Below, piece by piece: positions 8,937 through 57,676 of a stretch of DNA of 64,000 bases. Under the pieces are notes generated by a model. That model searched no databases. It was not told the DNA's origin and saw nothing but the letters and a program-made list of their open reading frames with translations. The DNA comes from a candidate division WOR-3 bacterium (GTDB lineage Bacteria > Hydrothermota > Tepidihabitantia > Tepidihabitantales > Tepidihabitantaceae): positions 1,767 to 65,766 of the forward strand of contig JBDRUH010000001.1 of NCBI GenBank assembly GCA_039801225.1. Reading direction: 5' to 3'. The translations under genes and the position numbers were made by a program. Numbering within the stretch: the stretch's first letter is position 1; each line of letters opens with the position of its first letter.

Positions 8937-9728
8937 TCACCAGCGCTTGCCTACCGAATGAACCTGCCAATTTCCCTTATCCTTTTTTAAATAAACCTCC
9001 ATCCCTCTCGGTCTCTTGATAATTTTTCTCCCGAAATAGTAGGGCGAAGGTTTTAAGTCTATAGTAACCAGCGCTACATCACCAAAATTTTTTACTAACC
9101 CAAACTCACAGAATACCGGCATTCGGGTAAGGAACTTATCTTGAATAATATCCTCCTTTGCCCGCCAGACAACCTGCCTCCCTGCTAAAACCTCAAAAGA
9201 ATCATTAATGTAACCGGTCTTCACTACTGCAATTGTATCTAATTTAATCTTACCCAATTTAATATGCTTCAGCCCTTCAGGAGAAATAAAAAACTCCAAT
9301 GACCTTTTAACAATTATCCGCAACTCTGTAGTATCTTTCATTCCGTATTGAAATGACTGGTCAAGGATTTGAGAAATCCAGGCTAACTCCCAACCCGAGT
9401 CGGTATAAATCCAGTTGTGATAAAGATACTCATAATCACTCGCCCCTTGAAAAAAAACATAGGTTGAGGCGTGTCCACCTAACCCGCGGGTATCAATCGC
9501 CTTATTCTGTAACCTCATAATCCGGCGACCCGCCTGCCAGGCTTTAAATGCCGAATCAAACCGAGAGTAGTCTATCTCCTGGCGAAAAGAAGTCACAAAT
9601 AAACGATAAATCCCCCGACTCTCGCCGTTCATCAGCGCCTCGCCAAACTGTTGAACCTTCAGGTTAAATTGATATTGGGGCTTTGGAGTAACACTAAAAA
9701 GTGTCAGAAAAAATATAATAAAATTCAT
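8937..9728 (-). CDS. Hypothetical secreted protein
   Basis: N-terminal signal-like MNFIIFFLTLFSV. Convergent with the upstream + strand cluster. No recognisable family. Confidence 0.5.
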   Translation of the reverse strand: MNFIIFFLTLFSVTPKPQYQFNLKVQQFGEALMNGESRGIYRLFVTSFRQEIDYSRFDSAFKAWQAGRRIMRLQNKAIDTRGLGGHASTYVFFQGASDYEYLYHNWIYTDSGWELAWISQILDQSFQYGMKDTTELRIIVKRSLEFFISPEGLKHIKLGKIKLDTIAVVKTGYINDSFEVLAGRQVVWRAKEDIIQDKFLTRMPVFCEFGLVKNFGDVALVTIDLKPSPYYFGRKIIKRPRGMEVYLKKDKGNWQVHSVGKRW

Positions 9729-9871: not shown

Positions 9872-12022
9872 TCACTCCAAAAGGAGCAGTTTATGCACCC
9901 CGTTAACCCCTTTTCCCAATAACCGGATGAAATATAATCCTGCTGGCACTCGCCTTCCCGAATTGTCAGTAAAGTCCCAAACCAAACCAGACCCGGATGG
10001 CTTTAATGCCCGCACCTTTTCCCCGGTAATATCATAAATCTCCAAGACAACCAGCGGAGAAAGACTGAGGACAACCGGTGCCGAACCTATCCTCCAAACT
10101 GTCGGCTGTCGGCTGGCGGCTGGCGGCCATCGGCCGTCATCTGACGGGTTCTCCTCCACCCCTGGGTTGAACCTGATCCAGAATGACCAGGATGTGCTAA
10201 AATCGCCCCAGCCAAAACGATTATAGCCTTTGCAAAACCATTTGTAAGACTTACCATAGGTAAAAAGGTTGTCGGGAAGAGAACAACAAGGGACAGTTGT
10301 TACCGCCCGCCAGATGGTGTCGCCCGCACCATAAACAACCCGGAAACAGAAACTGTCCAAATCATTACGGGTGGTATCAACTAATAGGACAACCGGCGGC
10401 GAGAAAAGCTGCTGACCGTTTGGCGGTGCGAGATGTTTCGGTGGCAGCGCACCACGAATCAACTTAAAACAGCCAAAAGTCCCATCTGCCGACATCAGGG
10501 TTCCATTCCGATACTGTCGCAAGCGAAGGCGGAAGGAGTCGCCAGAAGGAAGTTCTGGGCTGACGAACCAGTTATAAACACCGGTATCAGGCACACTATC
10601 AAGAAAATTCCAGGTCCTGCCGGCATTGAAGGAAATATCTATTGCTACCCAGTCTGCCGGATTGCCAAAGTTGTCCCATCGCACCAAAACGGTATCTCCA
10701 ATAAATAGTGTCTCGCCCTTGCCCAGTGAGTTGTAAAAGGTGTCTCCGAGTGGGTAAAGAAGTTCCAGTTTATATGCATCCGCACCATTGGGATGGGGCG
10801 ACCCGATATGGGAGTTGTCTTCACCGGAATAGTGCCACCACTCCGCCGGTTTCCACCAGGTGTTGTGGACATACAGGTCCTTTTCCGGTGTGCGATAGCC
10901 ATAAGCGGCTAAAGAGTGAATCGCCCAGGTTGCTGACCAGACAAAGGCATAACCATCGTCAATTTCATTAACAATCCTCTCCCAGGCCCAGTCGTTTGCC
11001 GGCGTGCCTAGGTCCTGAATAACCTCAAAGGAGTAGCCATTGTCATAGGCAACCAGCCAGAGCCCTGGGGCGACCGCCGGGATACTCGTTGCCCCTCGGG
11101 TTGTGTCGGTGCTCATCCTTATGGCGCACTCCCGCTGGACATTGGGAATCTGCTTGTCCCATTCACCTTCCACCATATCCCAGCGCATCCAGAACCAGTC
11201 AACCAACCGACCATAATTCTGGCTCTTATCAATATATCCCATAACCATTGCTGCCGCAGTGGGTGTGCAGCCATAACTCCAGTCGTAAAATGGCGCCTTG
11301 TCCGCATCGGGGACAAATACGGCGGTAAACTTACTAAAGTCCCGATTCAATGCCTCTGCCCACTCCTGTTGGTGAATCTCCGCCGCAAGTCTCTTTTCCT
11401 CATTGTCCAGGTTTGCCTTTTTCTTTAAATCGGCGATGTGGTTAACAAATTCTTCCCGGGAACAAAAGGTCTGTTCAAAATGAGGGGTGAATATTACCCG
11501 CTCTTTAGAGGAATTGGCAAACTCAAGAAAGGTGACCGGCATAATAAAATAAATCCGGCAGAGGTAAACATCTTCACCAAGAACAGCCTTCGCCCGTTTC
11601 AGACCTTCGGGGACCACCGCGTAGAACTCGGAAGTACCATAGCCATAACAGACAATTGGCGGTCGGTCGTAACGGGCAGAAATTAGTAGATGGCTGTATT
11701 TTGAACGCCATTTGGTCAAATCGGTATTGGCGGTCAGGTTTTCCTTTTCGGCAATAATGTCTTTAACCACTTCATCATAATCGGGAAATTCCTTGCCATC
11801 GGTGCGAAAGTGAAACATATAACCGGCGGTCTGACCTTCCTCGTCCACATAAGGAATAATTGTTCCGAGTCGGCATCCCGGCCATTCCGCCTGTGCCTTA
11901 CGCAGAGCAATCTCTTTAATAGTCTCAAATGGCACCGCATTGGGTGGTGTTGAGCCCACTTCCGGCAGAGAAATTGCCCAGAGTGCGCCTAAACTAAAAA
12001 CCAATATTAAAAACAGCCTCAT
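9872..12022 (-). CDS. T9SS-secreted protein with a C39-like/papain-like cysteine peptidase-like domain
   Basis: N-terminal signal peptide. The C-terminus (YDITGEKVRALKPSG...GLYFIRLLGKGVNGVHKLLLLE) matches the type-A T9SS C-terminal sorting domain. Internal Cys motif DWSYGCTPTAAAMVMGY resembles the catalytic Cys motif of C39-type peptidases. The domain call is tentative. Confidence 0.65.
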   Translation of the reverse strand: MRLFLILVFSLGALWAISLPEVGSTPPNAVPFETIKEIALRKAQAEWPGCRLGTIIPYVDEEGQTAGYMFHFRTDGKEFPDYDEVVKDIIAEKENLTANTDLTKWRSKYSHLLISARYDRPPIVCYGYGTSEFYAVVPEGLKRAKAVLGEDVYLCRIYFIMPVTFLEFANSSKERVIFTPHFEQTFCSREEFVNHIADLKKKANLDNEEKRLAAEIHQQEWAEALNRDFSKFTAVFVPDADKAPFYDWSYGCTPTAAAMVMGYIDKSQNYGRLVDWFWMRWDMVEGEWDKQIPNVQRECAIRMSTDTTRGATSIPAVAPGLWLVAYDNGYSFEVIQDLGTPANDWAWERIVNEIDDGYAFVWSATWAIHSLAAYGYRTPEKDLYVHNTWWKPAEWWHYSGEDNSHIGSPHPNGADAYKLELLYPLGDTFYNSLGKGETLFIGDTVLVRWDNFGNPADWVAIDISFNAGRTWNFLDSVPDTGVYNWFVSPELPSGDSFRLRLRQYRNGTLMSADGTFGCFKLIRGALPPKHLAPPNGQQLFSPPVVLLVDTTRNDLDSFCFRVVYGAGDTIWRAVTTVPCCSLPDNLFTYGKSYKWFCKGYNRFGWGDFSTSWSFWIRFNPGVEENPSDDGRWPPAASRQPTVWRIGSAPVVLSLSPLVVLEIYDITGEKVRALKPSGSGLVWDFTDNSGRRVPAGLYFIRLLGKGVNGVHKLLLLE

Positions 12023-29306: not shown

Positions 29307-29343
29307 CTTAAAACAAAACCACCTTAAATGGCAATCCAACTTC

Positions 29344-29437
29344 GCAAACCTAAAGGTAGTCGCACAGCGACCTGCCCGAATCGGGCAGAGTGCCCTACAT
29401 ATACCCTTTTTGGCTTTTGGATTTTAGATTTTGGATT
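29344..29437. repeat. Intergenic member of the nested palindromic repeat family (core gcaaacctaaaggtagtcgcacagcgacctgc ... gcagagtgccctacat, followed by a ttttggc-type microsatellite)
   Basis: A shared 32-nt core with 36974-37005 (exact). 13-nt termini gcaaacctaaagg and gccctacat shared with 32356-32380. The internal palindrome ctgcccgaatcgggcag. Confidence 0.6.
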
Positions 29438-29446
29438 ATATCTCCT

Positions 29447-29785
29447 TTACCAGCGTCGGTTGGAATAGCCTCCACCGCTACGACCTCCGCGGTGAGAACC
29501 ACGAGTGCCACGACCTCGGACACCACCTCTACTTTCAATTCGCTCCCGGGCTTCAGCCACTTTCAACGCCCGGTCCTCCCAGTTATAGCCATTCAGATTG
29601 GAAATCGCTGATTGAGCCCCCTGGTCATTAGCCATCTCTATAAAAGCGAACCCCCGCGGACGGTTGGTAAACCGGTCGGTAACGATATTTACTGAAACTA
29701 CCTCACCCTGCTGACTGAACAAGTCACGCAGTTGATCTTCTGTTGCGCTGAATGGTAAATTACCTACAAACAAGCGCCTTGACAT
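29447..29785 (-). CDS. RNA-binding protein (RRM domain with RGG-rich tail)
   Basis: RNP1/RNP2: LFVGNLPF and RGFAFIEM. C-terminal GGVRGRGTRGSHRGGRSGGG. Confidence 0.85.
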   Translation of the reverse strand: MSRRLFVGNLPFSATEDQLRDLFSQQGEVVSVNIVTDRFTNRPRGFAFIEMANDQGAQSAISNLNGYNWEDRALKVAEARERIESRGGVRGRGTRGSHRGGRSGGGYSNRRW

Positions 29786-31067: not shown

Positions 31068-31985
31068 TTATGCCCGGGGGTGAAAGGTTTTATAAACCTC
31101 GCGCAGATAACTGCGGTCAATATGGGTGTATATTTGAGTTGTGGTAATACTTTGATGTCCGAGCATCTCCTGGACAGCGCGCAAATCAGCGCCACCTTCA
31201 AGGAGATGGGTAGCAAAGGAATGACGGAGAGTGTGCGGTGTTACCCGGCGTTTGATTCCCGCAAGGTGCCAACATTTCTTTAATATTTTCCAGAACCCCA
31301 TTCGGGTGAGACGAGCGCCACGGATGTTCAAAAAGAGGTAGGGATTACTTTTCCCGCGGCTGTAATAGGGTCGGGCGATGTTGAGATAATCCTTCACCGC
31401 CGAAATTGCCAGTTCCCCTAATGGCACCATTCGTTCCTTGCCTCGTTTACCGATAACCCGGACAAACCTCTCACTTAAATCAATATCACCTGTCTTCAAA
31501 TTAATGAGTTCTGAAACCCTCAAACCAGCCCCATAAGCCACCTCTAACATTGCCTTTGCCCGCAATACCCAGAACCGGTTAGCCACCTTCTCGGCACCCT
31601 CTATCAATTGGGCAACTTCTGATTGACTGAGCGTATCTGGTAGGTGATGCGGTACCTTGGGCACTTTTAAATCAACCGTTGGGTTGCAGGGTAAATTATA
31701 CTCGTTTACTAAAAAATCATAGAAGGAACGAATCGCTATTAACTTACGCGCTAAAGTAGAACTGGCTAACCCACAGTCGGCAAGGTGTCTAATATAATCT
31801 CTAATTGCCGCGGTCTGTGGGTGGTTCAGTCTTTCTTTAAAAGGACCGCTAAGAAATTGCTTCACATCGGTAAGATAGCAGTCTACGGAGGTTTTACTTA
31901 TCCCTCTCTCTACTAAAAGGTAATGGGCAAAACGCTCCAATATCTCGCTTTGTGGCTCTTGCCCGATTCGGGCATTATATTTCAA
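31068..31985 (-). CDS. Site-specific tyrosine recombinase XerC/XerD family
   Basis: RHSFATHLLEGGADLRAVQEMLGHQSITTTQIYTHI (R..H..Y catalytic region). Length 305 aa. Confidence 0.85.
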   Translation of the reverse strand: MKYNARIGQEPQSEILERFAHYLLVERGISKTSVDCYLTDVKQFLSGPFKERLNHPQTAAIRDYIRHLADCGLASSTLARKLIAIRSFYDFLVNEYNLPCNPTVDLKVPKVPHHLPDTLSQSEVAQLIEGAEKVANRFWVLRAKAMLEVAYGAGLRVSELINLKTGDIDLSERFVRVIGKRGKERMVPLGELAISAVKDYLNIARPYYSRGKSNPYLFLNIRGARLTRMGFWKILKKCWHLAGIKRRVTPHTLRHSFATHLLEGGADLRAVQEMLGHQSITTTQIYTHIDRSYLREVYKTFHPRA

Positions 31986-33585
31986 GGTCTGTCTTAGATA
32001 TTATAGTATCTTTCTCAAACCTTTCATCCGGTAAAGGATGATCCTGATTATAGTGGAGACCGCGGGACTCAAGACGGCGCTGGGCGCAGGCAACAATTAG
32101 CCGGGCGGTAAAAAGGAGATTGCGGAGTTCTAAACTATGAATTTCGCAAGCACTGGACACTTGGGATTGAGAACTGAGCACTGATAGTTCTGCCGCCGCT
32201 TTTTTCAGCCCGGCATCACTCCGGACGATTCCCGCATAACGCCACATTATCTCCCGCAGACGCCTTGGCAAATGTGGAAGTGCGAATGCGAAATGCGGAA
32301 ATTCTGAATTCCGAATTCCGAATTCTTTTGGCTTTTGGCTTTTGCCTTTACTTTTTGCAAACCTAAAGGTTTGCCCTACATTTTCCTGTGCCGCTATCGC
32401 CGCCCTTTCGGCAAATACCAGCGCCTCAAGAAGCGAATTGGAGGCGAGGCGATTTGCGCCATGAAGTCCAGTGCAGGCACACTCACCTGCGGCAAAAAGC
32501 CCTTTTATCGTAGACTCTCCCCAGGAGTTAACCAAAACTCCACCGCAGACATAATGAGCTGCTGGAACAACCGGAATCGGCTCCCGGGTAATATCTATTC
32601 CCAAATCAAGGCAGGTTTTGTAAATATTGGGAAACCGCTCCTTTAATCTTTTTGGCGGTATCGGCGAGCAATCCAACAGCACAAATTCCTCCCCGCGCCG
32701 GGCAATTTCAGCAGCAATTGCCCGAGCAACTACATCCCTTGGTGCCAAAGAGCCATCAGGATGGTAGGCGTTCATAAAAGGCTTACCATCCCTGGTCCGC
32801 AAAATTGCCCCTTCCCCCCTAACTGCCTCAGAAATAAGAAACGCCCGGTCGTCTATCTTTCTCCCGTAGAGCGTGGTTGGATGAAACTGGATAAACTCCA
32901 TATTGGCGATTTTTGCTCCTGCCCGGAACGCCATAGCAATTCCATCGCCAGTGGCAATCATAGGATTTGTGGTATGAAGATAGACCTGACCAATTCCTCC
33001 TGTTGCAAGAAGGCATACCCGGGAATGGACAAGGACCATCTCTTTGGTGGATTTATTTAAAACAATCACCCCCCAGTATTCGCCGTTTTCATTTAAAACA
33101 ATATCAACAGCAAAATGCTCCTCCCAGATTTTTACATTTGGTTGAGAACTCACCACCTGAAGCAGACCTCGTTCAATTTCAAACCCGGTGGCATCCTGAG
33201 CGTGAACAATCCGCCGCCGCCTGTGTCCGCCCTCCTGACCGAGGTCAAACTGCGGTTCACCTTTGACATCAACCGTGGCAGAAAACTTTATTCCTAACGC
33301 CCATAACTCCCGGACGAGGCGTGGACCAGATTCGGTAACCAGTTTCACAATATCCTTGTGGGCAAGACCCGCGCCAACCCTAATCGTATCCTCGTAATGA
33401 ATCTGGGGATTATCATCTTCTGCGACTGCAGCGGCGATCCCGCCCTGAGCATAGTTGGTATTTGACTCCGGGCTCTCCTTCTTTGTCACAATAAGGACAT
33501 TCCCTTTCTCTTTTAATTTATAAGCAAACCAGAGTCCGGCGATTCCGGAACCAAGAATTAGATAGTCAACCGTGATTTGATCCAC
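31975..33585 (-). CDS. nadB: L-aspartate oxidase
   Basis: N-terminal FAD motif LILGSGIAGL. FAAGECACTGLHGANRLASNSLLEALVF. C-terminal ESRGLHYNQDHP. Contains an in-frame repeat-derived insert (see finding at 32281-32385). Confidence 0.85.
   Translation of the reverse strand: MDQITVDYLILGSGIAGLWFAYKLKEKGNVLIVTKKESPESNTNYAQGGIAAAVAEDDNPQIHYEDTIRVGAGLAHKDIVKLVTESGPRLVRELWALGIKFSATVDVKGEPQFDLGQEGGHRRRRIVHAQDATGFEIERGLLQVVSSQPNVKIWEEHFAVDIVLNENGEYWGVIVLNKSTKEMVLVHSRVCLLATGGIGQVYLHTTNPMIATGDGIAMAFRAGAKIANMEFIQFHPTTLYGRKIDDRAFLISEAVRGEGAILRTRDGKPFMNAYHPDGSLAPRDVVARAIAAEIARRGEEFVLLDCSPIPPKRLKERFPNIYKTCLDLGIDITREPIPVVPAAHYVCGGVLVNSWGESTIKGLFAAGECACTGLHGANRLASNSLLEALVFAERAAIAAQENVGQTFRFAKSKGKSQKPKEFGIRNSEFPHFAFALPHLPRRLREIMWRYAGIVRSDAGLKKAAAELSVLSSQSQVSSACEIHSLELRNLLFTARLIVACAQRRLESRGLHYNQDHPLPDERFEKDTIISKTDLEI
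32281..32385. repeat. Member of the nested repeat family located in-frame inside nadB (gaattccg tandem, ttttggc microsatellite, gcaaacctaaagg-tttgccctacat core)
   Basis: Shares gcaaacctaaagg and gccctacat with 29344-29400 and 36974-37112. Encodes ...TFRFAKSKGKSQKPKEFGIRNSEFPHFAFALP within the NadB C-terminal linker. Confidence 0.55.
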
Positions 33586-34335: not shown

Positions 34336-37203
34336 TCATTCAATAATCAATTTCTTTCCGGTTATCATGCTTTTATAGCGGACAGTTAAAAAATAGACTC
34401 CAGGAATGAGCCCATCCAGGGCAACCTCCTCTTCAGCTACTCTTAGTTGATATCTCTTTACCTCTCGCCCCGATACATCATAAATACCGATATAAGCACC
34501 GGCTTGGGCAGCAACCTTGATACTTCCCTTTCGCGAGAGAATTGTGGCGCACATTTGGCTTTTGGCTTTTGGCTTTTGGCTTTTAACTTCCTCCACTCCA
34601 ATCAGATTCCAGTCGGTAAGTTTGGCATAAATGTCCCATCCCCGGTGCCGACGGTTGTCAGTCCAGGTAAAAGCAATTCTTTCCCTGTTAGCAGCAACGC
34701 TCTGACCAACAGTCCAGTGGACATTTTTCGGGAATATATTGGGTTCATTAATTTTCTTATTGTTGCTGACTCTTGTTCCATCTTCTCGGAACCGCTGGCA
34801 GTAAATCTGCGGATTGCCATAACCTTCCCTTTCATCGTTAAACATAACCACCAGCCTGCCCGAAGGGTCAAAGGAACAGGTTGGTGAGTAGGCGTCGTAA
34901 TCAAACCCTAAGGGTTCGTTAATCCGTTCATTCTCGCCCAGTGGCTTACCGATTGAGTCCAACCACTGCAGATAAACATTATAGGTCTCGTTTCTGGTAT
35001 CCTCCCAAGCGATCGCTATCCTCCTCTCATCCGATATGGCACAGGCTGGATAACCCTGATAAACGGCACTAGCGTCAGTATTCACCCGAATATTCCCGCC
35101 TATTCTTGAACCATCAGGACGGAATAACTGACAGTAAATATTATAATCACCATCCCGTAAGTCCATCCAACTTACAACCCATTCTCCAGAAGAGTTCATC
35201 GCTACGCTGGCATAACAACCTTCTGCGGCAGGGTCACTAACTAAAAACTCTGGACCCTGGGGATTGCCACTTTCGTCATAAAGCCGGGCAAATATCTGCG
35301 CCTTCCCTTCTCGATAATCAGTCCAGACAACCACCGCCCGATTGAAAGAATCAAGGGCACAATAGGAATACCACTGAAAGCCACCACTCGCATCAGAATT
35401 CACCCGAAAGTTGCCACCGCTCGGCTCACCTTCTCTATCAAAAAACTGACCGTATATATCCGCTTCATCACCTCTGATCTCGGTCCAGGTAACAAGAAAC
35501 CGTCCTTTGCCACCAGCAACACTGGGGTAATAATGGAGCGCACCAGGCAGTTCCTCATTTACTTTAATATTATCGCCTACCTCTTTTCCTAAAGAGTCAA
35601 ACACCGCGAAGTAGATGTCCGATTCACCATTTCGCTCATCATCCCAGGCGATGCCAATATTGCCCTGGCGTTCCATTCCGATTGATGATGTCCGCTGATG
35701 AGCACTAGCGCTATCATCATTCACCTTGAAATTACTGCCAATCGGTGTCCCATCCCGAGCGAGCCTTTGACAGTAGATATCCAAATTCCCTGCCCGGGCG
35801 TCAGCCCAGGCAACCCAGTAACCACCATCCAAAGTGGCTGCCACACTTGGTGAATTTTGGCTGGCTCCCCCGATGTCGGTATTTATTTTAAACTCATCTC
35901 CTATCCGATTGCCCTGGATATCAAACCGCTGGGCATAAATGTCCTCCTGTCCATCCCGACAATCGGTCCAGACAATTATAAACTCACCCAATTGATTTAT
36001 CGCCACATCACTGCCGAACTGGTCGGCATCGCCGTTATCGTTATTAACCCGGAAGTTGTCGCCTATCGGCTCGCCCGAACTTGAATAAATCTGGGCATAA
36101 ATATCCCCCTGACCGCGGCGATGGTCATCCCAGGAGATGACAAACTCACCGCTCGGAGAAACACCGATTGACGGTGACCACTGAGTGCTGTCATCGGTTG
36201 TAACCTGAATGTTATTACCCAACCTGGTGCCATCAAACCGAAATCGTTGAAAGAATATGTTCCAGTCCCAGGCGTTGTTTCCCCTTCCATCCATCCATAC
36301 AACCACAAACCTGCCCGAGTCATCACTTCCTACCGAAGGTTCATACTGATTGGCATAACCAATCGGGTCATCATTTACCCGAAAATTACCGCCTTGGGGT
36401 GAGCCATCGGGGTTGAAAAATTGAGCATAGATATCGCCAGTAAGCCCAAATCTTCGGTCATCCCAGGCAACAAGTGCCGTGCCATCCGCTCCTATGGAAA
36501 CACTGGAAATACTCTGGTCTCCTGCTACCCCAGAATCACTCACCCGGAAATTATCACCAATTCTTGTTCCGTCAGCATCAAACCATTGAGCGAACACATC
36601 CGAGTTGCCAATCTCTCGCCGGTCCTCCCAGGTGAAGAGAAACTTACCATCCAAACCGATAGCACCTGCCGGGTCGCCCTGCCAGCCCATCGTTATATCG
36701 GTATTAACCCGCTCATTTGTTCCGATAGGATGACCGCTGGAGTCAAACCGCTGAAACCATATATCAGCATCACCATCCCGAAACTCATACCAGGCGATGA
36801 CAAATGAACCATCCGAACCTATAGCAATTGCCGGACCGGATTGAGGACAACCACCGGTTATATCATCATTACATAGAAAGTCACCCCGGATGACACTATC
36901 TCTGTCACCCTTATAGGACAAGGCTTTAGCCAACAAAAATGTAGGGCAAGGCTTTAGCCTTGCTTTTCCGAATGCAAACCTAAAGGTAGTCGCACAGCGA
37001 CCTGCGTGCTCCACACAAGGGAGCCCAAAGACAGATGACCGAAGACCGTCTCCGGTCTCCCGTCTCCTGTCTTCTGTTGAGCGGGGTTTGGGGCACGCAG
37101 AGTGCCCTACATTACTCGTGGGGATATTAGCCAAGTTGTAGGACAACGCTTTAGCCCTACCTTCTCCCAAAATCATAAATCCCAATATGAGAATTAAATT
37201 CAT
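34336..37203 (-). CDS. T9SS-secreted protein with ~14 tandem ~48-aa repeats (W.D.R.G..DIY.QRFD..G...G.NFRVN.D motif), family unknown
   Basis: N-terminal signal peptide MNLILILGFMILG. C-terminal type-A sorting domain (IGIYDVSGREVKRY...IPGVYFLTVRYKS...KKLIIE). Repeat periodicity read directly from the translation. The N-terminal ~90 aa and a C-terminal KSQKPKAKSQ linker are encoded by repeat-family DNA. Confidence 0.7.
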   Translation of the reverse strand: MNLILILGFMILGEGRAKALSYNLANIPTSNVGHSACPKPRSTEDRRRETGDGLRSSVFGLPCVEHAGRCATTFRFAFGKARLKPCPTFLLAKALSYKGDRDSVIRGDFLCNDDITGGCPQSGPAIAIGSDGSFVIAWYEFRDGDADIWFQRFDSSGHPIGTNERVNTDITMGWQGDPAGAIGLDGKFLFTWEDRREIGNSDVFAQWFDADGTRIGDNFRVSDSGVAGDQSISSVSIGADGTALVAWDDRRFGLTGDIYAQFFNPDGSPQGGNFRVNDDPIGYANQYEPSVGSDDSGRFVVVWMDGRGNNAWDWNIFFQRFRFDGTRLGNNIQVTTDDSTQWSPSIGVSPSGEFVISWDDHRRGQGDIYAQIYSSSGEPIGDNFRVNNDNGDADQFGSDVAINQLGEFIIVWTDCRDGQEDIYAQRFDIQGNRIGDEFKINTDIGGASQNSPSVAATLDGGYWVAWADARAGNLDIYCQRLARDGTPIGSNFKVNDDSASAHQRTSSIGMERQGNIGIAWDDERNGESDIYFAVFDSLGKEVGDNIKVNEELPGALHYYPSVAGGKGRFLVTWTEIRGDEADIYGQFFDREGEPSGGNFRVNSDASGGFQWYSYCALDSFNRAVVVWTDYREGKAQIFARLYDESGNPQGPEFLVSDPAAEGCYASVAMNSSGEWVVSWMDLRDGDYNIYCQLFRPDGSRIGGNIRVNTDASAVYQGYPACAISDERRIAIAWEDTRNETYNVYLQWLDSIGKPLGENERINEPLGFDYDAYSPTCSFDPSGRLVVMFNDEREGYGNPQIYCQRFREDGTRVSNNKKINEPNIFPKNVHWTVGQSVAANRERIAFTWTDNRRHRGWDIYAKLTDWNLIGVEEVKSQKPKAKSQMCATILSRKGSIKVAAQAGAYIGIYDVSGREVKRYQLRVAEEEVALDGLIPGVYFLTVRYKSMITGKKLIIE
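36938..37112. repeat. MITE-like composite repeat with inverted termini atgtagggca ... tgccctacat, carrying a nested copy of a second repeat (gatgaccgaagaccgtct...)
   Basis: 10-nt perfect terminal inverted repeat. Internal 32-nt core identical to 29344-29375. An 18-nt segment identical to 23916-23933. Flanked by three ggctttagcc motifs. Lies inside the 5' coding region of the gene above. Confidence 0.55.
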
Positions 37204-48637: not shown

Positions 48638-48832
48638 ATGGTAAGTATTACTGTCAAAGAAGGCGAACCTTACGAGAGTTTTATCCGTCGGTTTCGCCGG
48701 GCGTGTGAACAGGCGGGTATTCTGCGTGAGGTGAAGCGTCGCGAGTTTTACGAGAAACCGAGTGAGCGACGCAAGCGTAAACTGGCCGAAGCCCGCCGCC
48801 GCATCTATCGGAAGCAGCTATTGGAAAGATAA
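48638..48832 (+). CDS. rpsU: 30S ribosomal protein S21
   Basis: MVSITVKEGEPYESFIRRFRRACEQAGILREVKRREFYEKPSERRKRK is a near-consensus S21. Confidence 0.9.
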   Translation: MVSITVKEGEPYESFIRRFRRACEQAGILREVKRREFYEKPSERRKRKLAEARRRIYRKQLLER

Positions 48833-48839
48833 CCGAAGG

Positions 48840-48863
48840 AAAGGCAAATCTCAAAAGCCAAAT
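48840..48863. repeat. Second copy of the 24-nt dispersed repeat aaaggcaaatctcaaaagccaaat (rpsU-mutS2 intergenic)
   Basis: Exact match to 24137-24160. Confidence 0.6.
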
Positions 48864-48935
48864 GCAAAATTGGCGCGGTACACTCGTCCATTTTGGTCGG
48901 ACAGAAATTTTTGTCTGTCATCACGAGAGGTAGCA

Positions 48936-51308
48936 GTGGATAAAGAAACACTGAACGCCCTTGACTTTCCTCGCCTTAAGGAGATATTAGTGAATTTTTG
49001 CACCACCGAGTTGGGCAGAGAAAAAGCCCAACAGTTGATGCCCAATTTAACCCCAGCAGAAGCAAAACTGGAACTGGACCGGCTGGAGGAGGTCTTAGAA
49101 CTAAACCAGGAACCACCGCTGAGCGGCATTGTTGACATCAGAACTTTAATTACCCAGGCACGGGTAGGAAGGGTATTAACCCCTGGAGAACTTCTGAAGG
49201 TTTATGCCACCTGTACCGGTCTGCGGGCAAGCGAGGAGTTTTTTCGACGTTACAAAAAAGACCAAAGAGCGCTGAGAGGAAAAAAAGAGCCGACCGCCAA
49301 CGGCCGACAGCCGAACGAAGAAAGTGACCTTGGGTCTTTAGTAAATGATATTGTCTCATTCCCGGAACTGGAACAGGAGATTAAACGGGTGATTGACGAA
49401 TCCGGAATGGTGCGCGACACCGCCAGCCCGAGGTTAGCAGAAGTTCGGAGTGAGTTAAAAGAACGGCGCAACCAACTGGTGGCACAATTGGAAAGAATGA
49501 TTGAAACCAATCCAGATTGGTTTGAAGGACCGGTGATGGTTCGCCGGGAGCGGTTTGTTCTGCCGGTAAAGTTACCCGAAAAGAACCGGGTCCCGGGAGT
49601 GGTTCATTCGGTATCGGACACCGGTCAAACGGTGTTTATTGAGCCGTTAACCACCATCCCGGAGCAGAACCGACTCCAAGAATTGCGCGACGCCGAGAAG
49701 GAGGAGATAAACCGACTTCTGCGCGACCTGTCGGCAAAAGTGGCCACCTTTGAGACAGAGCTAAGCCGAGCATTGGACCGGGTTGCCGCTCTGGACCTGC
49801 TTATTGCCAAACGCCGGCTGGCGATAAAATTCAACTGCCATAAACCAATCATTACCGATGAAGGAAAAATAGAATTAGTCCAGGCAAGACACCCGCTCCT
49901 TCTCCTCCATAAACAGGAGGTCGTTCCCTTAGACCTTCGTTTCCCTGATGGGGTAAATGTTGTCATTGTTTCTGGACCGAATGCCGGCGGAAAGACGGTG
50001 GTTCTAAAAACCTTGGGGCTTTGCAGTCTATTGCTCAAAGCCGGGATGTTTGTCCCGGCAGCCTCAGGAACAAAGTTACCTTTCTTTGAGAAGATTTTTG
50101 CCGATATCGGTGACGAGCAGTCGCTTGAGGCGGATATGTCCTCATTTACCGCCCATCTGAAACGGCTAAAAGAAATTCTCCTTGAGGCGGATGGACGAAG
50201 TTTAGTTTTAATTGACGAAATTGGTGCCGCCACCGCCCCTGAAGAAGGTGCCGCGCTGGCGATCGCGGTCTTGGAAGAGTTACGGAATCGGCAAATTTCC
50301 ACTGTTGCCACCACCCATTTCAACACCCTTAAACTCTTTGCCCGGAATGAGCCCGGGATGGTGAATGCGGCGATGGAGTTTCAAAACCGACCGACCTATC
50401 GGCTGATAATGGGAGTGCCGGGAGAGTCAAGCGCGTTTGAAATCGCCGAAAGTCTGGGTTTCCCAGCTCAGCTATTGGCGCGGGCAAAGATGCGGCTGGG
50501 CAAAGAGTGGCTTGACTTAAGTGCCAAATTAAGAACGCTTGACAAAAAATTACAGGAGGTGGAAAAGGAACGAGGCGAATTAAGGACGGAGAGAAGCCGT
50601 GTTGAACAACTGGCAAAGGAATATCAGACGAAATTAGGGGAATTTGAAATTTGGCGAAAGGAGCAGATGGCTCACCTCCACGAGGAGGAGGAGCGCTTCC
50701 TTAAGGAAACTCGCCGCCAGGTGGAAAATCTGATTCGGGAATTGAGGGAAGAAAAGGCAAACCATAAAAGTATCGTCCGGGCAAAGCGGTATATTGAGGA
50801 GCGACTGAGTCAATTGAGTAAGGAACCAATCAGCCAACAGCCGGCTATGACCGGGGAAAGTCTGGCGATAGGCGATGTGGTGGAGTCAAGATTATTTCAC
50901 CGCCAGGGTCAGATAATAGAGTTGAAAGGAAACCGGGCGGTGGTGGCGTTTGGCAATATCAAAACGGAGTTGGACATCCGCGACCTAAACCCAGCCGTCA
51001 GCCCTCAGCCGACAGCCAACCGCGGACAGCCGAATGAAGAACAATATGAGTTTATCCCCAGGCTGAATGTCCGGGGAATGACCAAAGAGGATGCGGTGAA
51101 TGCGCTTAACCGCTTTCTTGAGGAGGCAACCATCGCCAGAGTAAATGAGTTATCAATTCTTCATGGAAAAGGAACCGGTGCCCTGCGCTCAATCATCTGG
51201 CGTCGGTTGAAACAGGATAAACGGGTTATGGAGGTCAGATTTGCCGAGCCGGCGGAAGGCGGAATGGGTGTAACATTGGTCAGGCTGAGGTTAAGTAGTA
51301 ATGATTAA
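48936..51308 (+). CDS. mutS2: Endonuclease MutS2 (MutS domain plus C-terminal Smr)
   Basis: Start set at in-frame GTG 48936 (VDKETLNALDFPRLKEIL). The track ORF from 48762 would overlap rpsU. Walker A SGPNAGGKT. C-terminal Smr (LNVRGMTKEDAVNALNRFL...LHGKGTGALR). Confidence 0.85.
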   Translation: MDKETLNALDFPRLKEILVNFCTTELGREKAQQLMPNLTPAEAKLELDRLEEVLELNQEPPLSGIVDIRTLITQARVGRVLTPGELLKVYATCTGLRASEEFFRRYKKDQRALRGKKEPTANGRQPNEESDLGSLVNDIVSFPELEQEIKRVIDESGMVRDTASPRLAEVRSELKERRNQLVAQLERMIETNPDWFEGPVMVRRERFVLPVKLPEKNRVPGVVHSVSDTGQTVFIEPLTTIPEQNRLQELRDAEKEEINRLLRDLSAKVATFETELSRALDRVAALDLLIAKRRLAIKFNCHKPIITDEGKIELVQARHPLLLLHKQEVVPLDLRFPDGVNVVIVSGPNAGGKTVVLKTLGLCSLLLKAGMFVPAASGTKLPFFEKIFADIGDEQSLEADMSSFTAHLKRLKEILLEADGRSLVLIDEIGAATAPEEGAALAIAVLEELRNRQISTVATTHFNTLKLFARNEPGMVNAAMEFQNRPTYRLIMGVPGESSAFEIAESLGFPAQLLARAKMRLGKEWLDLSAKLRTLDKKLQEVEKERGELRTERSRVEQLAKEYQTKLGEFEIWRKEQMAHLHEEEERFLKETRRQVENLIRELREEKANHKSIVRAKRYIEERLSQLSKEPISQQPAMTGESLAIGDVVESRLFHRQGQIIELKGNRAVVAFGNIKTELDIRDLNPAVSPQPTANRGQPNEEQYEFIPRLNVRGMTKEDAVNALNRFLEEATIARVNELSILHGKGTGALRSIIWRRLKQDKRVMEVRFAEPAEGGMGVTLVRLRLSSND

Positions 51309-56396: not shown

Positions 56397-57676
56397 GCAC
56401 CCGGGTTCTCCTTGTCGGTGTCGTAAAGTCCGGTCGGGAACGGTGGGCTAAAATTGAGGGTTTAGAGGAATTGGCCGCATTGTGCAAAACCTCCGGGGGA
56501 ACGGTAATAGAAAAACTAATCCAGGTCCGCTCCCATCCTGACCCGGCAACCTTGATTGGCAAAGGGAAAGCCCGGGAGTTGAACACCATCTGCACCACCT
56601 ACGATATCCACTTAATTGTCTTTGATGATGAACTTACCCCCACCCAGATAAGGAATCTTGAGGACATTATCGGTGTCCGGGTTATTGACCGCCCGGCATT
56701 GATTCTGGACATTTTTGCCATTCATGCCCGGACCGCCGAGGCAAAGACCCAGGTAGAACTTGCCCAGTTGGAGTATTTAAAAACCCGATTAACCGGCTCA
56801 GGACTGGAAATGTCCCGATTAGGTGGGGGTATTGGTACCCGTGGTCCAGGTGAGACGCAACTTGAGGTTGACCGCCGCCGGATTGAACAGCGAATCCAAA
56901 CCCTGCGTCAAAGACTCGCCCGGATTGACCGCGAGCGACAGGTGCAGCGGAAACGGCGCAGCAATATCCTCCAATTTGTCCTTGTTGGCTACACCAATGC
57001 CGGTAAGTCAACCGTTTTCAACCGACTAACCAGGGCGCACACAAAAGTCTCTGACGAACTCTTTGCTACCCTTGATGCCAACACTAGACTTTTGAGATTG
57101 AGTCACAATATTTCGGCGGTATTAACCGATACCGTTGGTTTTATCCGCAACTTACCCACCCAGTTAATCGCCAGTTTCCGCTCCACTCTGGCAGAAATCA
57201 AAGATGCCGACTTAATTCTCCATATTGCCGATGCCAGCGCCCCTCAGGTAAACGAACAGATAGCAGCGGTAAAGGAAACGCTCCAGGGACTCGGGGTGGG
57301 CGAAAAGCCGACACTACTCATCTTCAATAAAATTGATCGGGTTTTTGATGAAACAGTCCTTCTCCGGCTAAAGGAGCACTACGAAGATTCGGTATTTATC
57401 TCCGCCCTTACCGGTTATGGGATAGAAAAACTACTAAAAAAAATACGCTCTTTCGTGAACCGTCTCTTGATAACAAAAACATTTATCATCCCCAGCGAAC
57501 GCTGGGATCTGGTAACCCAGATCCTCAACGCCGGGGAACTTCTCGGCGACGAGGAAATCAATGGCAAACGCCGTCTCAAAATAAGAAGCTTTCCGGCAGA
57601 AATTGCTCGCTTACGCAAACTCCTTACTGCCGGTCGGCTGACGGCTGAGGGCTCGACCGCTATTCCTCTATTTTAA
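56393..57676 (+). CDS. hflX: GTPase HflX
   Basis: Start moved to ATG 56393 (MSTRVLLVG), an ATGA overlap with the upstream stop. HflX N-domain and the GTRGPGETQLEVDRRRI motif. G1 GYTNAGKST. Confidence 0.85.
   Translation: MSTRVLLVGVVKSGRERWAKIEGLEELAALCKTSGGTVIEKLIQVRSHPDPATLIGKGKARELNTICTTYDIHLIVFDDELTPTQIRNLEDIIGVRVIDRPALILDIFAIHARTAEAKTQVELAQLEYLKTRLTGSGLEMSRLGGGIGTRGPGETQLEVDRRRIEQRIQTLRQRLARIDRERQVQRKRRSNILQFVLVGYTNAGKSTVFNRLTRAHTKVSDELFATLDANTRLLRLSHNISAVLTDTVGFIRNLPTQLIASFRSTLAEIKDADLILHIADASAPQVNEQIAAVKETLQGLGVGEKPTLLIFNKIDRVFDETVLLRLKEHYEDSVFISALTGYGIEKLLKKIRSFVNRLLITKTFIIPSERWDLVTQILNAGELLGDEEINGKRRLKIRSFPAEIARLRKLLTAGRLTAEGSTAIPLF

Follow-up and report, generated by a model that had tools for sequence, protein, structure and literature searches.

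A repeat-built linker inside an intact nadB gene

In the 64-kb stretch of DNA analysed here (the window; a candidate division WOR-3 bacterium, contig JBDRUH010000001.1), to which all position numbers refer, an intact nadB gene for L-aspartate oxidase occupies 31975-33585 on the minus strand. The names of the organisms that carry homologous NadB proteins point to a relative of candidate division WOR-3. The gene was identified as a 536-residue open reading frame (ORF) by two Pfam domains, FAD_binding_2 (residues 7-385) and, at the C-terminus, Succ_DH_flav_C of the fumarate-reductase type (residues 441-530), and by its match to E. coli L-aspartate oxidase (1CHU, E = 1e-123), its best relative of solved structure. 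Between these domains lies a variable linker segment of 119 nt (32265-32383, minus strand; residues ~401-441) that is derived from repeats: a hairpin of the repetitive extragenic palindrome (REP) type and arrays of heptanucleotides. Its borders follow from blastn against the 92%-identical relative L001, where the alignment runs to 32384 and restarts at 32264. A preliminary description of this DNA, made from the sequence alone, had placed the segment at 32281-32385; the location was right, but the segment is slightly wider.

The domains on either side of the linker are under purifying selection. The ORF is unbroken in all relatives examined, and the orthologue alignment contains 138 invariant columns, among them the C-terminal motif ESRGLH. 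The ratio of nonsynonymous to synonymous substitution rates (dN/dS) for the N-terminal part is 0.06 against L001; on the longer branch to L002, the ratios are 0.079 for the N-terminal and 0.139 for the C-terminal part. Synteny around nadB is conserved among relatives. In an AlphaFold2 model of NadB, the mean predicted local distance difference test score (pLDDT) is 82, but the blocks of ten residues from 401 to 440 score 62, 52, 39 and 61, compared with 93-96 for the neighbouring blocks. Values below 50 are confined to residues 409-415 and 423-434, both within the linker, and the C-terminal domain is modelled with pLDDT of 86-94 immediately past it. The model is consistent with a disordered tether. 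The preliminary description had proposed structure modelling to confirm a surface loop; in the model, confidence drops in the linker alone.

On the coding strand, the linker reads in the order GCACAGGA, AAATGTAGGGCAAACCTTTAGGTTTGC, array A, array B, array C and CGTCTGCGG. The REP hairpin at 32357-32381 (minus strand; coding strand ATGTAGGGCAAACCTTTAGGTTTGC) is a GTAG-tagged singlet that encodes VGQTFRFA, recognized by exact match and by family membership. Read from 32381 to 32357, it has the form AT-GTAG-G-GCAAACC-TTTA-GGTTTGC, with the GTAG head at 32376-32379 and a perfect 7-bp stem (32357-32363 with 32368-32374) that encloses a 4-nt loop (32364-32367). The core GCAAACCTAAAGGTTTGCCCTACAT, which had already been recognized inside nadB, has this single exact match in the window and none in shuffled sequence.

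Array A (32325-32356, minus strand) is coding (AAAGCCA)n, or (CTTTTGG)n on the plus strand, and encodes KSKGKSQKPK; its coding-strand units are AAAAAGT AAAGGCA AAAGCCA AAAGCCA AAAG. Tandem Repeats Finder (TRF) reports 3.6 good copies at 32325-32349 with period 7 and 94% matches, next to one decayed copy, and this is the ttttggc microsatellite seen earlier. The same unit recurs in the window at 29408, 34554 and 48852. Array B (32300-32325, minus strand) is coding (GAATTCG)n, or (AATTCCG)n on the plus strand, with units AATTCGG AATTCGG AATTCAG AATTTCC, and encodes EFGIRNSEF. It had been taken for three copies of an octamer, gaattccg; a tandem repeat is indeed present, but its unit is the 7-nt AATTCCG in 3.7 copies (TRF period 7, 94% matches). 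For the units of arrays A and B, shuffles give an expectation of ~0 matches. Array C (32267-32299, minus strand) is a decayed, (CATTTCG/TTTCGCA)-like series traced by partial identity between positions i and i+7. It comprises ~5 units with indels, GCGAAAT-like on the plus strand and GCATTTC GCATTC GCACTTCC ACATTTGCC AAGG on the coding strand, encodes PHFAFALPHLP, and differs by a single mismatch from the TTTTGCA family found at 24242. L003, an NCBI assembly made independently (GCA_965648965.1; 99.8% identical to the window over 8.3 kb), shows these units in a more regular form, with CCGCATTT in place of the CCACATTT of the window. A terminal inverted repeat of the whole segment (AAATGTAGG ... 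CCACATTT), considered as a decayed inverted REP doublet (REPIN), was ruled out, as the 3' end in L003 is CCGCATTT and fits array C.

The reading frame runs through all of these elements. Only one of the three frames of the REP strand is stop-free, and that frame (VGQTFRFA) is the one used in nadB; the array units have no stop codon in any frame, and the total length of the segment preserves the frame. The predicted NadB translation contains the peptide TFRFAKSKGKSQKPKEFGIRNSEFPHFAFALP, as quoted in the preliminary description, and the linker peptide includes the stretches AAQENVGQTFRFAK and FALPHLPR. The proposal that the linker DNA consists of dispersed repeats read in frame thus holds, as the hairpin is a member of a REP family and the heptamers recur elsewhere in the window.

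Linker turnover among relatives

The segment is genuine and not an assembly artefact: L003 carries the same 119 nt at the identical place, with two point differences from the window. In all 35 aligned WOR-3 orthologues, a linker is present between the motifs ALVFAERAA and RLRxxMWxYAGIVR, with unalignable sequence and variable length. By our own delimitation, the linkers of 117 orthologues span 30-60 residues, with a median of 41. Relatives differ in what fills this interval. L001 replaces the 119 nt of the window with 77 unrelated nt of (CAGCCGA)n; L002 (83% identity) has (CTTAAC)4 hexamers, L085 has (AGTCAGA)n, and L086 combines (TCACCCA)n, (TTCGCCG)n and (CCTCCCT)n. Identity between positions i and i+7 of the DNA is 0.48-0.61 in the heptamer-bearing linkers, the hexamers of L002 excepted; for four other relatives it is only 0.25-0.30. 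Among the encoded peptides, those of 28 of the 117 orthologue linkers score at least 5 for self-identity at period 7, whereas periods 5, 6, 8 and 9 yield 0-2. Across lineages, at least four unrelated heptamer families occupy the NadB linker, and a heptad-periodic form persists clade-wide.

It had been claimed that ~35 residues of the linker have no counterpart in the linkers of typical NadB proteins, that of E. coli for example, and that they are an insertion. Residues 8-520 of 1CHU align with residues 5-517 of the query, with few gapped positions over the linker and no net gap, which rules out that the linker has gained net length over the E. coli protein. Alignment with orthologues, a check that had been proposed together with the insertion, likewise speaks against the term: 'insertion' fails because relatives have a linker of similar length made of unrelated DNA, although the repeat origin is unaffected. 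Judged from these alignments, the change appears to be replacement or turnover within a pre-existing hypervariable linker, without added length.

Two observations on other NadB sequences may be recorded here. Orthologues P0026-P0083, ~60% identical to the query, share a clade-wide heptad-periodic linker of the EVRSQKS / ESRVQSP type, which reflects either an old array kept by homogenization or selection, or repeated gain. In NadB P0014 (L087), 24 low-complexity residues (PPVFGPRSSVSFSTSTSTSTLSFL) form a second insertion in the capping-domain region (alignment columns 124-147), which is missing from all 35 other aligned NadB sequences.

The hairpin and its REP family

A degenerate pattern, ATGTAGGGCAANNCTTTAGNNTTGC, was scanned over metagenomes and matched at least 120 stretches; the family has the form GTAGGGCAA-NN-CTTTAG-NN-TTGC. 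Among the matches listed, the nadB 25-mer occurs exactly (25/25 identity) 38 times and is one of three main flavours of the REP. The two free stem pairs are complementary in 127 of 133 copies among the matches listed, in six pair combinations: GG/CC (60), AC/GT (38, the nadB flavour), CC/GG (19), AG/CT (5), GC/GC (4) and TG/CA (1). This pattern of paired substitution indicates that the stem is maintained by compensatory change, and one compensated stem variant, GCAAGGC/GCCTTGC, lies in the window at 36941. Half of the family is arranged in inverted doublets of the form [ATGTAGGGCAAGGCTTTAGCCTTGC]-spacer-[GCAACCCTAAAGGGTTGCCCTACAT], with a partner within 80 nt in 64 of the 127 unique REP contexts among the matches listed. 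Only 7 of the 127 copies among the matches listed lie in a frame that stays open for 150 nt or more to either side; intragenic copies are thus rare, and the nadB REP is of this kind.

Within the window, there are five GTAGGGCA heads plus GTAGGACA variants, distributed over three loci in 64 kb, and all five GTAGGGCA heads follow A/T-rich bases and AT. By its sequence and predicted structure, the nadB hairpin belongs to the GTAG-type REPs, from which it departs in two features only: it is not extragenic and not a doublet. An extragenic example, in the usual position, is the composite at 29344-29437 (minus strand), in which a GTAGGGCA head, a 33-nt nested hairpin insert and a CCTTTAGGTTTGC tail are followed by a (TTTTGGA/TTTTGGC) array at 29408-29437. 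The composite lies between convergent genes, 3' of an RRM gene (29447-29785). A 45-nt indel in this composite separates the window (~29325-29369) from L003 (4950-4960), two assemblies that are otherwise 99.8% identical; the indel is bounded by an AGGT direct repeat, which indicates recent deletion or insertion activity at the REP.

A REP-associated tyrosine transposase (RAYT) was sought by tblastn seeded with an E. coli RAYT (YafM) sequence, with Pfam confirmation, and then with the RAYT of L111 as query. ORFs with the Y1_Tnp domain (PF01797; E = 1e-9 to 1e-11) were found in L111, L106/L116, L133 and L192, and they carry the FMPDHLHLL (HUH) and Y-I-F-x-NPVRKGLV motifs. The same REP stands on both sides of the Y1_Tnp genes in L111, L106, L133 and L192; in L111, for example, REP doublets at 1101-1160 and 1664-1721 enclose the ORF at 1179-1658. 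The RAYT gene is likewise flanked by REPs in L209-L211, contigs of named WOR-3 metagenome-assembled genomes (MAGs), and WOR-3 MAGs contain 8-13 REP heads per 12-20 kb near RAYTs. Named sources of RAYT relatives are candidate division WOR-3, Deltaproteobacteria, anammox Planctomycetes (Kuenenia/Brocadia/Scalinduaceae), Desantisbacteria, Saganbacteria and Margulisiibacteriota, and the contigs that host the REP family have a G+C content of 26-57%. By analogy with the other WOR-3 MAGs, we infer that a RAYT is present in this genome as well; for WOR-3 RAYTs such as that of L209, single-stranded GTAGGGCAAACCTTTAGGTTTGC would be a candidate substrate.

The RAYT genes themselves show traces of REP DNA. 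The called ORFs of L106 (4977-5528), L133 (2591-3046) and L209-L211 (from 10001) include one to three N-terminal copies of REP-coded VGQGFSLA peptides, where start codons may have been called too far upstream; in L192, one REP-coded peptide (TVGQCFSIA) lies within the conserved region of the ORF (464-865). An insertion of 35 nt (5 x 7), placed exactly in a REP hairpin loop downstream of the RAYT, distinguishes the closely related WOR-3 MAGs L209 (~10656-10700) and L210 (~10656-10735) from each other and recalls the hairpin-nested heptamers at 37000-37100 of the window.

Heptamer arrays in the window and in other linkers

With arrays defined as at least three units at 85% identity, the window contains 14 arrays of period 7, compared with none in 20 shuffles. 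No tandem arrays of period 6 or of periods 8-15 were found in the window, and period 7 is its sole enriched tandem period. The density of heptamer arrays per kb is 0.17 in the window and 0.20 in eight WOR-3 loci, compared with 0.036 in 1.32 Mb of outgroup loci, that is, nadB loci of other phyla (NadB 42-57% identical) among the matches listed of the NadB-alignment contig scan. The units of the window are related to one another. In 20 of 120 pairs they fall within one mismatch in any rotation or on either strand, whereas 500 random sets averaged 2.2 such pairs and never exceeded 7, and a chain of units can be drawn from CAGCCGA through AAAGCCG, AAAAGCC and AAAATCC to AAAATGC. The majority of the units are stop-free on both strands.

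NadB is not the only protein in which such arrays are read as linkers. A 955-residue protein (ORF 34336-37203, minus strand), secreted and tailed for the type IX secretion system (Pfam tail domain at residues 903-954), contains at 34551-34585 (minus strand) 4.4 perfect copies of (AAAGCCA)n (TRF, 100% matches), which encode the linker KSQKPKAKSQ before the Por_Secre_tail domain. At the other end of this protein, a cluster of three to four REP heads, in which (GAGACGG/GACCGAA) heptamers are nested in a hairpin (36915-37165, minus strand), follows the signal peptide in frame. Relative to its orthologues in L088, L084 and L085, the protein has ~45-55 additional REP- and heptamer-coded residues at this N-terminus, where the heptamers of L001 are of another kind, (CCGCTGT).

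In MutS2 (48762-51308, plus strand), six copies of (CAGCCGA)n at 50992-51033 (plus strand; TRF) encode an in-frame linker at residues ~744-757 and fill the interval between the Pfam domains MSSS (SH3-like; 704-742) and Smr (768-843). The gene contains three in-frame heptamer arrays in all, the other two at 48840-48870 and 49289-49317; repair genes often host intragenic repeats (Di Nocera et al., PMC3733652). In HflX, an in-frame array (57633-57653) lies in the C-terminal region, past the matched domains.

Other features of the neighbourhood are given for completeness. The stop of nadB is overlapped over 11 nt by a gene for a XerC/D-type tyrosine recombinase (31068-31985, minus strand); because the order nadB-xer-purM is kept in the fetched WOR-3 loci, xer looks like a resident gene and not part of a mobile element. 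The 1.3-kb intergenic stretch at 23909-25187 is unusually long, with an AT-rich, ORF-free core at ~24360-24900 and repeat modules including GGCTCCGTCATTCCGA and GAGGAATCCCTTCGCTCGGGGCAGGC that recur at ~8945-9015 and 1-60 of L001; an Rfam search at gathering thresholds gave no match in this stretch. A small ORF at 24924-25169 (plus strand) has a sub-threshold match to DUF7387 (26.5 bits against a cut-off of 27.9), and its C-terminal part (ENFDFCNLHFDF) coincides with a (TTTGACT/TTTGCAA) array at ~25090-25125.

Origin of the linker and alternative explanations

The identity of the repeats, their family membership, the turnover of the linker, the purifying selection on the domains either side and the low confidence of the linker in the model are all directly supported. 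Most probably, the NadB linker is a tolerated, passive occupant derived from REP and heptamer DNA. The linker would be a structurally unconstrained loop between the FAD-binding/capping part and the C-terminal helical domain, and in WOR-3 it would act as a sink for the selfish or slippage-prone DNA common in these genomes. The REP may have arrived by RAYT-type single-strand insertion, and the heptamer arrays may have arisen and spread by replication slippage or some other dispersal process. Only in-frame, stop-free outcomes would have survived in nadB, further insertion and microhomology deletion would have turned the linker over, and the peptide itself would be neutral. The outcome would be a low-complexity peptide of ~40 residues, of the usual linker length, in a NadB that presumably still functions.

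Several points weigh against this account. The nadB REP is a singlet and not a doublet, and no RAYT was found with the YafM and L111 RAYT queries in the 64-kb window or in the nadB loci of close relatives. The dN/dS of the C-terminal part against L001, the closest divergent relative, is 0.48, although this value derives from only ~16 substitutions. Because the linker differs in every close relative, the direction of the change cannot be polarized, and the repeats may have come by insertion or by gradual replacement. A specific physical link between REP heads and heptamers was considered but is unsupported: the 3.6-fold enrichment of period 7 in the 150 nt around the heads is equalled by that of periods 8 and 9 (3.3-3.7-fold). 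Moreover, NadB is known here as a sequence, its translation and activity being predicted.

A more active role of the repeats is conceivable but doubtful. Rather than products of local slippage, the heptamers could be a class of repeats that is dispersed and actively propagates in WOR-3, similar to the short tandemly repeated repetitive (STRR) sequences of cyanobacteria and possibly coupled to REPs and RAYTs or to hairpin loops, that rewrites permissive linkers. If so, protein linkers would be a regular habitat of a mobile simple repeat and a source of peptide novelty.

We consider it improbable that the linker is functional and selected, be it as a phase-variable contingency locus, as an mRNA hairpin that pauses ribosomes or stabilizes the transcript, or as a flexible charged tether. 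Seven is not a multiple of three, so that a change in unit number would shift the frame and remove the C-terminal domain; with arrays of just three to four units, however, slippage is expected to be rare, and unit numbers are equal in the window and L003 (a weak test, with two genomes only), where the differences are the two point changes. Likewise, RNA of the coding strand folds better than shuffles (z = -3.1) and REPs are able to act as RNA elements (PMC3733652), but the wholly different sequence in the 92%-identical relative implies that no given peptide or hairpin is conserved. The ESRVQSP-type periodicity retained by the large clade of ~60% identical orthologues is a hint of persistence, but nadB is a biosynthetic housekeeping gene and not a surface or contingency gene, and identical arrays occur in unrelated linkers and in intergenic DNA.

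Still less credible is the idea that junk accumulates here because nadB is decaying into a pseudogene or can dispense with its C-terminal domain. The C-terminal dN/dS against L001 would fit, as would the archaeal NadB structure 2E5V (472 residues), which in a sequence search matches residues 10-392 of the query only. Opposed to this are the ORF that is intact in every relative examined, the invariant columns that extend to ESRGLH, the C-terminal ratio of 0.14 on the longer branch to L002, the high pLDDT of the C-terminal domain right after the linker and the conserved synteny.

Two further explanations have next to no probability. A low-complexity, repeat-rich segment is a place where assemblers err, and mis-joining of repeat DNA into nadB had been raised as a possibility; but the independent assembly GCA_965648965.1 has the identical segment bar two single-nucleotide differences, the reading frame is preserved, and the assemblies of three other relatives carry different repeats precisely there. 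An ordinary fast-evolving linker with a coincidental likeness to repeats would fit the fast divergence of linkers and the four of eight distinct linker DNAs without a period-7 signal, but is contradicted by the 25/25 match to the REP consensus with its 38 occurrences elsewhere among the matches listed, by arrays with 94% matches over 3.6-3.7 units against ~0 expected, and by the excess of related unit pairs over all 500 random trials. An intein, with its splicing blocks and at least ~130 residues, is ruled out by the ~40 low-complexity residues of the segment, and a search for known structured RNAs or introns by Rfam scan of the window at gathering thresholds returned four tRNAs only.

Relation to known repeats and significance

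The passive, repeat-derived linker that we favour combines the behaviour of two known kinds of repeat. GTAG REPs are palindromes with stems of 5-13 bp and loops of 2-20 nt (PMC3733652, Table 1), and together with RAYTs they are defined by the REPtron, a RAYT flanked by REPs (PMC3733652; Bertels & Rainey 2011, PMC3116915). The present family resembles GTAG REPs/REPINs and their RAYTs (TnpA-REP) in the GTAG head, in the palindrome with a 7-bp stem and 4-nt loop, in the head-to-head doublets formed by half of its copies among the matches listed, and, at the family level and on other contigs, in the REP-flanked Y1 transposase gene. A further likeness is the mainly extragenic location with occasional in-frame copies thought to occupy loops or linkers; Di Nocera et al. 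(2013, PMC3733652) place intragenic GTAG REPs in 'flexible linkers or loops'. It differs in that it spans very different hosts, over the wide range of G+C content given above and several phyla, and in the nadB copy, where a single REP is fused to heptamer arrays. The GTAGGGCAA-NN-CTTTAG-NN-TTGC family is absent from the main text of the 2013 survey (PMC3733652).

Rickettsia palindromic elements (RPEs) offer a second parallel, as selfish palindromes read in frame in essential or housekeeping proteins, at sites where additional peptide is tolerated (cited in PMC3733652). RPE-1, in the same account, is longer and adds length, whereas here a 25-nt REP plus simple repeats gives no net gain in length. 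The likeness is one of behaviour only, and the host lineage differs. That a housekeeping enzyme should tolerate such a peptide had been called unusual; this was an overstatement, since both intragenic GTAG REPs and RPEs in known proteins are documented (PMC3733652).

For the heptamers, MacGregor (2015, PMC4679880, citing Mrazek 2007) reports that in some bacteria no other long simple repeat is as common as heptanucleotides, for which polymerase slippage is proposed as the cause, and places occasional ORF-internal copies at protein peripheries. In the same source, the cyanobacterial STRR and the TAACTGA repeats of Beggiatoaceae are, like the arrays reported here, over-represented period-7 arrays of two to six units, in which few units are dispersed at many loci with occasional copies in ORFs, at their ends or outside domains. 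The units differ, those of the window belonging to the CAGCCGA, AAAGCCA, GAATTCG and GACCGAA families. In addition, the TAACTGA repeats lie mostly just upstream of start codons, whereas most of the heptamer units in this window lack stops on both strands and are often read as protein linkers. The nadB case thus joins intragenic behaviour of the GTAG REP/RPE kind to STRR-like heptamers; these are known kinds of element, with no new mechanism. Mildly novel are only the spread of the REP across phyla and the recurrent rewriting of one enzyme linker by heptamers.

The NadB linker provides a clean natural example of how an inter-domain linker of an enzyme absorbs arbitrary sequence while the catalytic domains remain strongly selected. 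For the annotation of uncultured lineages, it implies that VGQGFSLA/VGQTFRFA peptides and heptad-periodic runs are REP or heptamer DNA and not protein motifs. The REP/RAYT family itself is hereby documented as common to WOR-3 and several other phyla.

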